64,000 nt of DNA from Psammoneis japonica (Eukaryota), in NCBI GenBank assembly GCA_008632985.1, contig QPGO01000063.1:62001-126000 (forward strand). The letters run 5' to 3'. The notes under the pieces were generated by a model, which saw only the letters and a program-made list of their open reading frames with translations, had not been told where the DNA came from and made no database searches. Position 1 is the first letter of the stretch, and each line of letters begins with the position of its first letter. The position numbers were made by a program, and so were the translations under genes. Positions 2,535 through 62,400 of the stretch are shown here, piece by piece.

Positions 2535-3565
2535 GCACTGCATGCATGCAGCGCGGCACTTGGCGCCAGCATGCAGCCTGAAGCCTTCCAAGTGAGTGAC
2601 TGCCGGTGGGACCAACAACAGAGGTGTCTCTGGCACTTGTTTGCAAGAGATGTCATCAGGTCCAGGTTGCTGTTACAACCATGGCATGGATGAAGTTGTT
2701 CAGAACGATGTGTCCCAATGAAAAGTGACAAGAGTTGTGTTTTGGTTTTGGTGACATGGAGCAGAAAGTGCGGCAGTTTGTGTCTCTCCAACTCGAGGGC
2801 CACAAAAACAAAAGGATGAAAGGGCGCACTGAGAGAGATCACACACAATGACACAAGCTTTCTTTTGCAAACATGGGCTTGCATGGCATCAGCCACACAA
2901 TGTGCTCACATGCCAGCACTGTTTTCAGCACATGTGAAAAAGTGCTGTGGAGAGAAGCAGCACATCATTGACAAGGGTGCTGTTTGAGCCTCTGTGTGTG
3001 GTTCTTCCAGGCACCACAAAAAGCACCAGCAGCAGCATGTTTTGTGTGGAGGGTTGAATTGATGGTCAGCTGAGTGGCTCTTCATTTTTGCACAGCCCCT
3101 TCTTTGTGTGGAAATGTCAAAAGGCACAGCCGGTCATCACAGACAAGTGTGAAAAACAAGGGCATGCTGGCATCATTGGCATCGTCAGCACTGCCCACTG
3201 CCCAGACTGAAGCAGGGGCTCTCGGGCTTTGTCAGCTCTTGTTGATGGCAGGTTGCCCACATGATGCATCTTCCTTTGTTGGGTGGGTGGCAGCAAGTGG
3301 GCACTGCAAAGAGAAGACAAGTGGCGTGCAGTCATGTCACAAAAAGGAAAAGAAGAAAAGGGAGACATCAGAGGCTGCAGCCGGCAGCAGCTTGGCCGCC
3401 TTTTTTTGCTCAGCGAATGAGTGCAAAAAATGTTGTGGATCAGCAAGCTGTTGGAGTCAGTTGCTTTTGGAAGCAGGTTGGTTGCCATGCAAGTTGCCAG
3501 AGAGTTGGTTGTTTTGAATTGCCAAGAGGTGGGGGGTGACATCTGACAGGTGCACAAACTTGCAG
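2535..3565. mobile_element. TpA-erased degenerate repeat block A
   Basis: About one TA in ~1 kb, TG/CA-rich, only Tyr-free spurious ORFs; family not recognisable. Confidence 0.55.
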
Positions 3566-3604
3566 TAACTAAATGCTGTAATTCCACCTAAGTTTCCACC
3601 GTAG

Positions 3605-3677
3605 GCTCTGGTAGTTCAGGGGTTAGAACGTCTCGTTTACACCGAGAAGGTCGCGTGTTCAAATCACGCCCGGAGTA
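3605..3677 (+). tRNA. trnV-UAC: tRNA-Val(UAC)
   Basis: Acceptor GCTCTGG/CCGGAGT+A; anticodon arm TCTCG-TT TAC AC-CGAGA; T-arm GCGTG-TTCAAAT-CACGC; oligo-T terminator immediately downstream. Confidence 0.95.
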
Positions 3678-57687: not shown

Positions 57688-58968
57688 GCCGTAAGTGTCG
57701 GCAGTGGTGGGGATTTTTACGAAGGTGTAACTTTGTGGGCTAATGGATCATGGTTAGAAGAAGATCAACGATGATGATGAAGGCTATAGAGATTGTTGGA
57801 ACTATGGAGTATCTTTTCGTGATCTGCTTCCAAAATAGACTCTCTGATCTTGACTCGCTTTTCTACAACGCTGTCATTTCTTGACCTTTTTTGCCCTTTT
57901 TGTCCATCATTTTCAACACAACTTATCTTGGTCTCCGTTTGTTGCTCGTTGGCATGAAATTGAGATCCTGAGAACGTCACTCATGTCATCACGGTCTTTA
58001 GGATTGTCGGCCCGTGTTCGAGAATACGGGCCTTGGTCAAACCATCGGTGCAAAGTTCGTCCAGTCCTTCCCAAACTCTATCACAGCTTTTGCAACATTT
58101 CAGAATGCACACCTCGGGACACAGCAGCACCTGGGAATGTCACGGTCTTTGTCAGTTGCACCAAAAATTTGGTTGCTGCAGCACGGACCCCCATCCGGCA
58201 AGGGCGTTTCCCCCAACAGCAGCATGATTCCTCATCACCATTGCATCCTTGGGAGTTTTTCCAGTCTCAGGTTTTGCAACCTCAATGCCACTCAAAGACC
58301 TGCTGCACAGAACATCAGCACCAATGCTGCAAGATTGTCTTGCATCTTTGGTGTTGCCACCTGTGGGTCCTTCCTCACACATTCAGAGAATGGAGAAGAG
58401 AGAGCTGAGCTGACTTGAGATTTGGCACTGTCTTTTCTACAAGCACTGGGCTCTTAAAAGAGGTGCCAATGCTGATGCGACCAACTGCACGATGCAGTGC
58501 AATGATGTCCCCAGGAGGTGTTGGAGCATCCACTGGAATGAATGCAGCGCACAAAGACATCAAGGAAAAGACCATCAAATGCACGCAGAAGGAGCATGTC
58601 AGGGTGCACATCTGGCAAGGTCCCCAGAGGACATGAACTGCAAGGATTTCTCTGGCAAGAGTTCCACATTGTAGATGCCAACAACAGCAATCTCAGAATC
58701 ATTGGGTGCTGATTGCCAGGCCAAGTTCAGTCAGAGAGCATGAGAAGAAAAGCAGTGCAAGCATGAGTGCAAAGCCAAGAAGTTGCGCGGCCAAAACAAG
58801 AAGCTTGATGAGAACAAGATTCCCACATTTGCGTTGACCCCCAATGATCACAGCACCAAGCCAATTGGGCAAAGGGTGCAAGCCAATCCCAAATGTCAGG
58901 GGATCACAGAGACAACCTGATCAAGATTTTGAAGACAATCCAGTCACTTGCGTTCAAGTCAATGAGAT

Positions 58969-59417
58969 TGCAGCATGCATGCAGACAAAAGGTCATTTTT
59001 GTCACGCCCTTTGTGACATTTAAACTGTAACACGTCGCCGTGACACATTAACTCTCATTAGTGGCTGTGTGTTGCACTCCTCCCCATGTATCACGCGTCC
59101 ATACGGCTCTTTACTACATAACGTGTACTGACACTGCACGGTTTTGGCGGAACAGTGTGGGTGCGTACGAAGGAACATACAGAACTGCACAGAGTTTTAC
59201 GCGTTCGACAGTGATCAACGTTGCTGCAGACAACTCCCACTCAGGGTTTCGAACCCCTGGCCTCCTGCCTAATGGTTGCGCATTGAACCACTCCGCTACG
59301 AATTCACAATGCAGCATGCATGCAGACAAAAGGTTGTTTTTGTCACGCCCTTTGTGACATTTAAACTGCAACACGTCGCCGTGACACATTGACTCTCATT
59401 AGCAGCTGTGTGTTGCA
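58969..59417 (-). mobile_element. 449-bp TRIM, 108-bp LTRs, 4-bp TSD AGAT, tRNA-like internal cassette
   Basis: LTRs 58969-59076 and 59310-59417 (TG..CA); minus-strand PPT GGGGAGGAG abutting 59076; AGAT on both flanks. Confidence 0.88.
59245..59298 (-). promoter_or_regulatory. Pol III A-box/B-box (tRNA-derived) inside the TRIM
   Basis: A-box TAGCGGAGTGG (59298-59288), B-box GGTTCGAAACC (59255-59245), tRNA-like spacing. Confidence 0.7.
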
Positions 59418-62400
59418 AGATGTCAAAATCCATTCCACACACTTGCCAAGTCCCTGAAGCACATGTTGGAAGTGAAACAACTTGAAGACAAATCACTGAA
59501 TGACTGCCTGTCAAGATTTGAGAATCAACAAAATGTTGCAAGTGATGGTTGGATTTGTCAAGGATGCCAAGGAGTGCAAGGGCTGCACTGCCATGAGAGT
59601 GCAAGATGTGCCAAAAGATGCTGCATTCAAGACATGGGCTGTGTGCCTGTTTGTGGAGAACAGTGATGACCACTTCTGCAACAAGAGCCTTGAGAAGATC
59701 CTTGCAAGAGATTGCAGCCTGGGGAGGGATTTGCACCCAAAGACTCTCAAGAAGGCAATGGATGTGTCACTTGACCATCCAAAGGACAACGACCCACACA
59801 AGGGATGGAGCAAAAAAAAAACAACAAATGTCCCAAGAACAGAAAAAGAGAAGGGTGATGACAAGACCAACAACCCACAAAACCAGAGACATTCACAGAG
59901 TGGCAAAAGCAGGGCAATGCAGTGTGCCATTGTTGAGGTGCTCCAAACCACAAATTCCCAGACTGCAGGAGGCATGAGGATGAGATCCCAGCACAGAAAC
60001 ACTGGTGCAAGAATTCTGGTGGGAGACTGGACACCAGGGGACAAAGTCACAAACGTGCAAGCGAAAAAGACCACTTGTCAGTGAGTGGCAACAGCGCCAT
60101 CATCAACACATGCAGATCAAGTCAATCAGCAAGCTCTGGCAAGAGAAAGAGAAACATTGCTTGGCATGGTGAAGACTGGCAGGCCAAAAACAAGCCAGAG
60201 ACAACTTTGAGCCAAGCCAACATCAGCGCCAAGTCAGATGAGAATCATCCTTGACCATGGCTCTGCCCCAAACATGGTGGCAAGCCGGAGACCAGTGCAC
60301 AATGTGTGTCCATCAATGGTCAAGATTGATCTGTCCACCAAAAACATGGGAGCAGATGCTCCTGACAGAGCTTGCACCATGCCAGGATGGATTGAGACAT
60401 GAAACTTGGATTGCAGAACAAACAACACATGCCATTGTGGCTGGGCTGCCACCTGTCATTCGTTCAAGACACCACCACAGCCAAAATGAGACATTCTGTT
60501 GATCATGTTTTGGGGCCAATCTGGGAAGAGCCATCACAGCCATTTTTTGGCACAGCTCACATGGAAAAAACTCACACGCCTTTTAGCAGGAGGTCCAGCA
60601 TGCAGAAAACCTGCTGACCCCTGCACATTCACCACTCTTTTGCTGCTTTTCTAGTGGACACAAAGTCTCAAAAAACATCTCTAAAATTCAGACATGATTC
60701 CTGGCAGAAATCAATGCTTCTTTCCATTTTAGAAGGAGCCATCATCTGGTCTCAAAACAACACACAAAACAATCACAAAGCTGCACAAAATGCAGCCAAC
60801 AACAACATTTGACGAAAGTTGAAAGTGGGTGTTTGCACCCCAAGCAAAACTGTTTTTTCCTTGAACATCTCAAGAAAACACTGCTGATGAGTGGATGAAT
60901 GTGCACACTCACAACATGGAGAGCTGAGAAGATGCACTGAGGAGCTGTCATGACAGAGTTCCAACTTGCTGGCAACATTTGGAGCAAATCAGGCACAAAC
61001 ATCATGGTGCTGCGTCACGCAGATTTTCACCATGAAAAAGATGTTGAGACGGGGCCATCACTCAACATGAACAACATGTTTTGTTAAATGACTGAAATGT
61101 TGGACAACTGTTGTTGAACATGGCATGAACTGGAATTGGCCATTTTTCCCACCACATTGTTCTGGGAACAACGATGGCATTCACCAGCAGCTGCTGCTGA
61201 CCCCACAGCAAAAAAGGGACACATTCATGGCTGTGACCCAGATCACAAAGAAAGAAAGATGATGGGCAGATTGCTTGGAAAGTGCAAAAGGCTGAAAAGT
61301 TATTTGCAGTGGACCCGGGAAAAAAGAAAGGCTGTTGAGCTGCCAACAAACAATGATGATGCCCCCGCTGAATGGCAGTTGAATTGTGATGGAGAGATGT
61401 TCTCAACCATTGACAGCAGCAAATCAACCACAACAAAGTGTGCTGGATTGGCAAACAAAGGCAACACTGTGGTTGAGAAATGCAGAAGAAAATGCATGCA
61501 TGAAAAACCAGGAGCAATGGGGAGAAGGGTTTGCACTTGCCAACCTGCAGTTGAATTCAAATGGAGACATTCTCGGCCATTGATGGCAGCACAACAACCA
61601 CAATGAAGTGTGCCAGGTTGAAGAAAATGCATGCATCAAAAACCAGGAGACAAAGGTGAAACAGGGAGAAGGGTTTGCAATCACCAACCAGCAGCTGAGT
61701 TGCAATGGAGATGTTCTTAACCACAGATGGCAGCAAAACAACCACAACAAAGTGTGGTGGATTGGTGGACAAAGGCAATGCTGTGGTCAAGAAGGGCCAC
61801 CAGACATGAAAATGTCTCAAAAGTCAAGATTCACCAGGGAGCAGCAACCTGGACAATCTCTTCAAGATGACGGAATTGGACACGCCAACATGGAACAACA
61901 TCAAGAACCTGGAATCACCTTGTGAAGTGGATAAGATCTCCCCTCCGACTCAAACGGAGTCAGCAGCCAAAGCCATTTTCCACCCAATTGCTCCTCTTCC
62001 ACCATTCACAGTGAGCCAATTTATTGATGAAGATGACTGGTCTGCAGCCAATCTGTCAATTGCCACACTCTCAGCTAATCCACAACTGCGATCAAGCTCA
62101 TGACGGATCTTGGCCCACGGTTGGACGAGGACGGACGCACCTCGCACTTTTTACCCTACAATGACGCTAGTAGGGTTTTATGATGTCCACTTCTACTCGC
62201 GGTTTTGTCCTTTTTTTTTGGAGGCAGCAACAACTCAAGGATTAATAGTTAAAAGAGATAACTACTCGTCGAGAAGACGTCGGTGCCGCCATTATACACA
62301 GCTTTTGAGCGCTGCGATCCGGTCGGTAGATGGGGGAATCACGGGCCATCGGAGATTTGGGAGTGAAAGTGAAGCCGAAACTATGGAGTGTGTAGGAAAA

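Follow-up and report, generated by a model that had tools for sequence, protein, structure and literature searches.

Targeted hypermutation of the dinucleotide TpA (TA in the counts below, with CG, TG and CA for the others) was reported in April 2026 for mutation-accumulation lines of Bigelowiella natans (Mettrop et al., bioRxiv 10.64898/2026.01.13.699255), and this work concerns a signature of the same type in a 64-kb stretch of DNA deposited as Psammoneis japonica (contig QPGO01000063.1 of assembly GCA_008632985.1, forward-strand positions 62,001 to 126,000). This stretch, at its full 64,000 nucleotides, is called the window, and all coordinates are counted from its first letter. In the preprint, 231 of 302 nuclear mutations fall in two integrated viral regions, one of a giant virus and one of a virophage, and 230 of those 231 are changes of A to G or of T to C, all at TpA. 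The rate in these regions is given as ~6e-7 per site per generation versus 3.5e-10 elsewhere, or ~1000 times the background, and the mutations are present in some lines only. The same text counts 324 genes poor in TpA, among which reverse transcriptase and DDE domains are over-represented, as well as 124 clusters of windows that are poor in TpA and rich in CpA plus TpG, and it proposes an ADAT2-like adenine deaminase, Bn78255.

A first-pass annotation of the window had noted much of the signature discussed below, and had supposed that the underlying process was without a description; that supposition falls, as the B. natans preprint reports the same signature. No description of TpA hypermutation in a diatom was found in the literature searched, the coverage of which was limited. 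In what follows, we describe segments of the window that are in all probability integrated mobile or captured DNA, mutated in place by a host process that turns TpA into TpG or CpA.

TpA depletion in bounded segments

The whole 64 kb holds 1417 TA, with 76 gaps of at least 150 nt between successive TA, the longest being 1780 nt (12481-14261) and another 924 nt (42716-43640). Counts of TA per 500-nt window are 0-5 in the flagged stretches versus 13-38 in the genes between them. Eight TA-depleted segments with sharp limits are distinguished, 32,304 nt (32.3 kb) in total, named A to F, G1 and G2 (Table 1). The first-pass annotation had drawn seven sharply bounded blocks, about 33 kb in all, beside normal genes; the blocks are real, but they number eight, the last being split by a 380-nt island that keeps TA. 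Its local counts hold as well, with 0 TA in 42720-43635 and 20 in 46437-52815.

Pooled over the segments, TA occurs 155 times, an observed/expected ratio (o/e) of 0.08, and CG 750 times (0.38), along with 3363 TG (1.73) and 3494 CA (1.67). The corresponding values for the remaining 31,696 nt are 1254 TA (0.58), 1754 CG (0.97), 2306 TG (1.18) and 2344 CA (1.17), and the other dinucleotides change little between the two. At the outside rate, 1278 TA would be expected in the segments where 155 are seen (Poisson P(<=155) = 0 to machine precision). The deficits at outside rates, 1123 for TA and 1038 for CG, come to 2161, compared to an excess of 2118 for TG and CA, and thus the books balance if both TA and CG became TG or CA. 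The depletion of TA is near saturation (o/e 0.03-0.08), and the edges are sharp to ~10-100 nt. For instance, at the right end of segment D, TA is found at 37191 and 37534, and then at 37640, 37663, 37675, 37684 and onward.

The depletion extends to the stop codons, as the loss of TAA and TAG leaves TGA as the sole stop, and long open reading frames (ORFs) run in all six frames (148 ORFs of at least 90 aa in 32 kb). None of these 148 ORFs matches a transposon or viral Pfam family, the only Pfam matches being two weak ones, to cytochrome b561 and ERM_helical.

Direction, timing and rate of the changes

The direction of change is TA to TG or CA, and is agreed upon by three independent lines of evidence: other copies from the same sample, protein relatives, and the DNA of relatives. 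For the first, same-sample contigs were aligned to 33501-53500 at a likeness of at least 80%, giving 977 transition and 431 transversion places for one sequencing run (X1, one of three runs, X1 to X3). Among the 40 best supported of 1452 entries in this comparison, 25 are sites at which the window has TG (13) or CA (12) against TA in other copies, with the opposite direction in 1; the spectrum is therefore neither reversed nor confined to CG. The share of the depth that carries TA at these sites ranges from 0.14 to 0.97, implying that the copies are mutated to differing degrees.

The second line comes from a 662-aa ORF in segment D, P0201, whose gene has a TA o/e of 0.043. Its closest relative, the 688-aa P0203 of a public assembly, is 52% identical over the full length and heads a family of 1255 representatives at E <=0.001. 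The 16 tyrosines of P0203 are read in P0201 as His (6), Cys (6), Phe (2), Leu (1) and Tyr (1), so that the earlier observation of conserved tyrosines turning into cysteine or histidine is confirmed for 12 of 16 positions. P0201 retains the Cys of P0203 at 12 of 16 positions, the His at 12 of 13 and the Trp at 10 of 11, and a distant family member, P0204, has Tyr at 8 of the same 16 positions. Over nine family-conserved Tyr columns, P0201 keeps 1, compared to 5-9 of 8-10 in 33 other members, and it keeps 131 of 174 other conserved columns. Tyr makes up 0.2% of P0201, compared to at least 1.7% (median 3.1%) of each of 153 relatives, and the catalytic Tyr itself reads Cys. For the third line, a DNA-level search that used a 5-sequence alignment brought up 14 environmental loci with related genes, and all 14 have a gene TA o/e of 0.40-0.82 and a CG o/e of 0.57-1.28; the family is thus not TA-free by nature.

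The timing of the process can be read from the long terminal repeat (LTR) retrotransposon at 15374-19111, which is recognised by its direct LTRs, TG..CA ends, 5-bp target duplication and purine tract. Reverse transcription makes both LTRs of an insertion from a single template, and they do not differ when the element integrates. In this element 23 of 276 positions now differ, so the process acts on integrated DNA. The differences comprise 22 transitions and 1 transversion, and 19 of the 22 transitions lie at pyrimidine-purine steps, including five adjacent reciprocal CA/TG pairs, as expected from an ancestral TA that became TG in one LTR and CA in the other. The identity of the two LTRs is 92% as bases and 99.6% when bases are collapsed to purine and pyrimidine, and this collapse raises the identity in every pair of copies compared. 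Reciprocal TG/CA differences are common between paired copies, and over seven young pairs, transitions are found at 78 of 429 sites in pyrimidine-purine steps versus 21 of 396 other sites (odds ratio 4.0, Fisher p 7e-9), which bears out the earlier remark that such copies differ mostly by TA/TG, TA/CA, CG/TG-CA or reciprocal TG/CA; nearly all of their differences are transitions at these steps. Continual cycling between TG and CA was considered as a source of these differences and rejected as superfluous for young pairs, where opposite single hits on an ancestral TA suffice.

A maximum-likelihood Poisson fit to the LTR pair puts the ancestral TA at ~14, of which each copy has lost a fraction of 0.79, and the CG at ~22, with 0.13 lost. 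Relative to transitions outside pyrimidine-purine steps, the fitted rates per site are ~68x for TA and ~6x for CG, such that TA is lost at ~11x the rate of CG, ratios that are rough given the small sample of one pair.

With regard to strand, segments A, B, C and F have about as many TG as CA (p 0.50-1.0). The local skew between TG and CA is not wider than binomial, and the 25 polarised outcomes from the 40 best entries fall into 15 runs versus 13.5 expected; sites are thus hit singly, and on either strand. The sequence context of the TA that survive is uneven, with TTAA enriched 5.3-fold and TTAG 3.6-fold, and ATAC, ATAG and ATAT at 0.1-0.2-fold (chi-square p 2e-17; 163 surviving TA sites, some of them in younger insertions). 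The asymmetry is palindromic, in that YTAR is over-represented and RTAY under-represented, and the process seems to favour TA with a purine before it and a pyrimidine after it. A strand-specific rule based on the -2 base was tried for the survival of TTAA and dropped, as the polarised outcomes disagree with it (TTAB, 2 CA versus 4 TG; VTAA, 2 TG versus 3 CA).

The loss of CG follows a different course. Segment F has lost both TA and CG (CG o/e 0.00-0.24 per 500-nt window), whereas segment D and its ORF have a TA o/e of 0.04 and a CG o/e of 0.70, the latter inside the range of the environmental relatives. Since TA is gone from D while CG is retained, the two losses are separate, with that of TA coming first, in agreement with the rates from the LTR pair. 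Together with the post-integration differences of the LTRs, this upholds the earlier proposal of a DNA-level, strand-symmetric process at TpA that is distinct from CpG decay. The three observations that the first-pass annotation had named as refuting its proposal all turned out in the proposal's favour, to the extent that the data allowed. In the diatom P. tricornutum, transposons are targets of CG methylation according to the part of the source available (PMC9998398), and the CpG decay therefore needs no new explanation: the loss of CG is ordinary deamination of methylated CpG, slower than the loss of TA, and present in most but not all segments.

Contents of the segments and of the DNA between them

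Four kinds of element can be recognised in the segments, namely the LTR retrotransposon, elements resembling miniature inverted-repeat transposable elements (MITEs), the tyrosine-recombinase ORF, and copies of host genes, with the rest unclassified (Table 1). A transposon identity is established only for parts of B and D, and C and F carry mutated fragments of host genes. The first-pass annotation had the depletion confined to mobile or foreign-looking DNA, which agrees with the LTR element, recombinase transposon and MITE identified here, although much else is unclassified.

Table 1. Coordinates of the TA-depleted segments and of the elements recognised within them
Feature	Position	Strand	Description
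Segment A	2674-3566		1 TA, 11 CG, 104 TG, 104 CA; origin unclassified
Segment B	5486-19632		14.1-kb composite; 87 TA, many in younger islands, e.g. 8348-8706
MITE-like copy 1	8331-8721		~400-nt element with inverted ends of ~24 nt; still 24 TA
Left target-site duplication	15369-15373	+	TGCGG; flanks the LTR element
5' LTR	15374-15649	+	276 nt, ends TG..CA
42-nt tandem array	17263-18309	+	inside the LTR element; units differ by TG/CA/TA/CG at shared steps
3' LTR	18836-19111	+	276 nt, preceded by purine tract
Right target-site duplication	19112-19116	+	TGCGG; flanks the LTR element
Segment C	28456-30975		9 TA, 37 CG
zf-MYND fragment	30769-30900	+	mutated copy of first 130 nt of adjoining zf-MYND gene (31339-31466)
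Segment D	33572-37534		24 TA; CG largely retained (170 CG)
MITE-like copy 2	35252-35651		7 TA
P0201	35654-37642	+	662-aa ORF; read as hypermutated copy of a tyrosine-recombinase (Crypton-like) transposon gene
Segment E	42716-43640		925 nt, zero internal TA; between two genes; unclassified
Segment F	46436-52815		most decayed segment: 21 TA and 29 CG in 6.4 kb
Hydrolase fragment	51449-51904	-	hypermutated copy of 5' part of alpha/beta-hydrolase gene (45793-46280)
Segment G1	58079-59021		TA-depleted
Segment G2	59400-61932		TA-depleted; internal direct repeats differing by transitions

In the case of the LTR element, no Pfam family, and hence no gag or pol domain, is found in its ORFs, and the interior consists largely of the 42-nt tandem array, which makes it a non-autonomous element or a degraded one. 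Similar contigs from the same sample stack in very large numbers on the second MITE-like copy, and one contig joint skips exactly that element.

The ORF of segment D is read as a Crypton-like tyrosine-recombinase transposon from the residues its family conserves. Members (P0203, P0209-P0357) are ~690 aa long, have no Pfam family of their own, and share an R..K..HxxR..H..Y pattern and a C-terminal Cys/His cluster. Among 34 aligned members, R284, K318 and H430 never vary, whereas H404, R407 and Y439 are conserved in at least 90%. An hhalign comparison of the family profile with phage P1 Cre places these residues in register with the catalytic ones of Cre, albeit with a weak score (E 0.006, probability 6%), the Cre residues concerned being R173, H289/R292, W315 and Y324. 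Other matches, weak as well, point the same way: P0204 matches the phrog_216 integrase at E 7e-5 and P0203 at 0.14, and of the 34 members one matches Pfam Phage_integrase (E 0.005) and three match NDC10_II. Searches of PDB sequences with two family profiles gave chance-level matches only. The family probably consists of Crypton-like tyrosine-recombinase transposons that are common in marine metagenomes. Contigs of run X2 that are ~95% like 35884-37723 skip 76-197 nt at five places, two of which have CT..AC ends; the skips are either short minus-strand introns in another copy or deletions between copies.

The two fragments of host genes allow a mutated copy to be set beside its source. The hydrolase pair is 66% identical as bases and 90% as purine/pyrimidine, and the zf-MYND fragment is 72% and 91% identical to its source, respectively. 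The zf-MYND fragment has lost CG at 8 of 8 sites and TA at 3 of 3, including a Tyr codon TAC that is now CAT. Both copies are mutated only inside the segments, and TA is retained in their partners outside.

Most genes between the segments consist of a single long ORF. They encode a P450, a thioredoxin/Erv1 protein, an Arf-like GTPase, a 1102-aa ATP-grasp protein, three zf-MYND paralogues, a Myb protein, a signal peptide peptidase, a TrmB-type methyltransferase, a Surp protein and an alpha/beta hydrolase. The named best matches of the signal peptide peptidase are from Helicotheca, Seminavis, Cyclotella and Coscinodiscus at 55-58% identity (the best match overall is at 67%), and the named matches of the P450 include a diatom metagenome-assembled genome and Pseudo-nitzschia. 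None of the proteins retrieved is identical to one encoded in the window. Judged from such matches, the genes of the window are diatom-like (stramenopile), and the host is other than Bigelowiella.

The three zf-MYND/Arm paralogues are arranged in tandem (25383-26504, 31306-32409 and 38084-39295), and two of them have non-coding downstream DNA in common (26637-27081 and 39428-39876). Segments C and D sit between these units. The paralogues are 70-74% identical to one another and keep normal TA, and since these are old duplicates, duplication alone does not attract the process. The Abhydrolase_3 gene (45311-46014, minus strand) is read in two frames, 45314-45910 and 45676-46014, which implies either an intron or a frameshift; its TG+CA is mildly raised (1.4), and the gene may itself be decaying.

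Two further places depart from the general pattern. The island of normal TA density between G1 and G2 (59022-59399) is flanked by direct repeats of 108 nt (58969-59076 and 59310-59417) that are 94% identical, and 100% as purine/pyrimidine, and it may have arisen through a younger insertion or through local duplication. A TA-free gap of 336 nt with normal CG (27694-28030) lies within two long overlapping ORFs on opposite strands (27266-28291, minus, and 27336-28355, plus), neither of which has a Pfam match, and may represent a small or early-stage mutated patch.

A probable host process at TpA, its alternatives and its relatives

The reading that we consider well supported, as stated at the outset, is one of integrated DNA mutated in place by the host. 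The integrated DNA would comprise the LTR retrotransposon, the Crypton-like transposon, MITE-like elements, gene fragments and older, unrecognisable remains. The process works on the chromosome, making an A:T to G:C transition at TpA with both strands equally likely and each site independent. It halts at the edge of the element, such that adjoining genes are spared, and within the element it ruins coding capacity. A second, slower and separate process, the deamination of methylated CpG, removes CG in most segments. As for the chemistry, the leading idea is adenine deamination, whereby a polynucleotide deaminase of the ADAT2/TadA type, as proposed for B. natans (10.64898/2026.01.13.699255), would convert adenine to hypoxanthine, to be read as G. 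The guide may be a silent-chromatin or small-RNA state of the element, and the effect would be permanent inactivation of the mobile DNA, for instance by changing the catalytic Tyr of the recombinase to Cys.

A number of points weigh against this reading. The evidence consists of fixed differences in one 64-kb window, and the 40 best-supported differences used for polarity are drawn from 33.6-34.9 kb. The strand balance is imperfect, as D, G1 and G2 show a modest excess of CA (p 0.003-0.035), along with an excess of A over T. In the hydrolase-fragment pair, 16 of 49 TG/CA steps are swapped relative to the copy outside the segments, which would take either a long time, with two hits at each step, or some mutation of the copy outside as well. 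Most of the 32 kb carries no recognisable transposon or viral domain, so that to speak of 'mobile DNA' is to extrapolate in the case of A, E and G, as well as for much of B, C and F. No deaminase family is found among the 43 window ORFs scanned (16, plus 27 of the 69 non-segment ORFs of at least 110 aa). The absence of hypermutation from all 14 environmental recombinase loci gives no sign here of how widespread the process is. Runs X1-X3 are from one sample, possibly the assembly's own data, so that the check that they provide is not independent of the assembly, and no RNA run is listed as containing the sequence. Lastly, TpA is palindromic, and adenine and thymine are therefore indistinguishable as the attacked base.

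It is on this last point that the first alternative builds, in which thymine would be attacked instead of adenine, being modified (for example, by an oxidation of the hydroxymethyluracil type) or mis-repaired, and then copied as C. Hydroxymethyluracil occurs at TpA in dinoflagellate DNA. A change of T to C on one strand is equivalent to A to G on the other because TpA is self-complementary, and even the context asymmetry of the surviving TA is palindromic. However, no sequence feature favours thymine, and the only enzyme class proposed in print, in the part of the preprint available, is an adenine deaminase (10.64898/2026.01.13.699255). We regard an attack on thymine as unlikely.

In the second alternative, the elements would have been edited before insertion, as RNA or cDNA, by an ADAR- or APOBEC-like activity, and would have arrived TA-poor. 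This would account for the sharp edges, as the segment limits coincide with element ends, and ADARs prefer a U 5' of the edited A (10.64898/2026.01.13.699255). Yet the LTRs of one insertion differ by 22 transitions, with opposite outcomes at five steps, and the strands are equally affected. Moreover, the changes extend beyond the LTR element to a DNA transposon, a MITE and fragments of host genes, and the mutations of B. natans arise in integrated single-copy DNA during culture (10.64898/2026.01.13.699255). Editing before insertion is thus largely refuted and has very little likelihood left.

An artefact of sequencing or assembly, in which modified bases at TA and CG in silent DNA were miscalled as TG or CA, is slightly less probable still. 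In its favour, the sequence is present in runs of one sample only, the platform of which is not on record. Against it, contigs of run X1, with a word depth of ~40-60 in unique parts, agree with segments E and F to within 0-6 differences per 0.8-1.6 kb: they are identical to the window at 49849-50606 and 51394-52414 in F, where the contigs do not restore TA, and the contig over E (42090-43725) has 6 letter differences and 7 gaps. Run X2 is without cover over E and F and run X3 has none, and nothing was drawn from either. In addition, repeat copies show TA, TG or CA at one site in stable proportions, the TA shares given above, and the Illumina-based experiment in B. natans shows such mutations to be real there (10.64898/2026.01.13.699255). 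The idea that the element families avoid TA by themselves, through native composition or selection, has nothing in its favour beyond the depletion itself and is refuted by the normal TA of all 14 relatives, the normal Tyr content of the family, the TA in other same-sample copies, and the destruction of catalytic and conserved residues.

Mutation in place by a host process, the preferred reading, carries several implications. The signature stands at saturation in a diatom-like genome, and the process is thus not peculiar to one alga or to giant-virus inserts; erasure of TpA may be a widespread defence against mobile DNA. We tentatively suggest, as a possibility that we hold to be somewhat less likely than its contrary, that a single ancient and homologous defence pathway of Rhizaria and stramenopiles, perhaps of the whole SAR group (stramenopiles, alveolates and Rhizaria), acts on transposons and integrated viruses, and that in diatoms it outpaces CpG decay and is the main permanent kill of mobile DNA. 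To our knowledge, targeted A:T to G:C hypermutation of chromosomal DNA still lacks an identified enzyme. If the suggestion is correct, the enzyme would be the first natural deaminase of adenine in chromosomal DNA, and could be found through genes that are common to lineages with the signature and absent from lineages without it. The hunt for it becomes a comparative one across two distant lineages, one of which has genetically tractable models, and the LTR pair offers a clean, datable substrate that gives relative rates. There are also consequences for annotation. Mutated segments lose their homology to source proteins along with their TAA and TAG stops, resulting in spurious long ORFs, missed repeats and a trap for gene prediction, and the dating of insertions by LTR divergence is strongly biased in genomes with TpA erasure.

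Of the known systems, ADAR/APOBEC hyper-editing shares with the window the use of deamination as a defence. Those enzymes act on RNA or single-stranded intermediates with a strand bias, whereas here both strands of integrated double-stranded DNA are affected equally. The decay of methylated CpG accounts for the part of the changes that runs from CG to TG or CA, but cannot remove TA, which is lost in D where CG is retained, and ~11x faster than CG in the LTR element. Fungal repeat-induced point mutation (RIP) is similar in being a transition-only, dinucleotide-specific and sharply bounded inactivation of chromosomal mobile DNA. Its direction is the opposite, however, as RIP makes TpA from CpA, and here TpA is destroyed. 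Nor is there a sign of the dependence on duplication that RIP would suggest, as the summed depth of E and F is about that of the unique flanks and the zf-MYND duplicates are untouched.

The closest likeness is to B. natans, as described in the available part of the preprint. In both cases, A:T to G:C is the only change and TpA the only site, with the strand deciding between TpG and CpA, and in both the change is limited to discrete foreign segments beside a normal genome, with depletion of TpA and a gain of CpA plus TpG. The differences are in host, target, degree and the nature of the evidence. The host here is a diatom-like stramenopile and theirs a chlorarachniophyte (Rhizaria). The targets here are an LTR element, a tyrosine-recombinase transposon, a MITE and gene fragments, with no viral gene recognised. 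The depletion reaches an o/e of 0.03-0.08 here, compared to 0.45 in their giant-virus region, and is accompanied by a CpG decay, CpG not being discussed in that part of their text. Finally, the process is deduced here from fixed differences, whereas theirs was measured in mutation-accumulation lines. The window therefore shows a signature of the B. natans type in a new lineage and on new targets, with a separate CpG decay alongside it.

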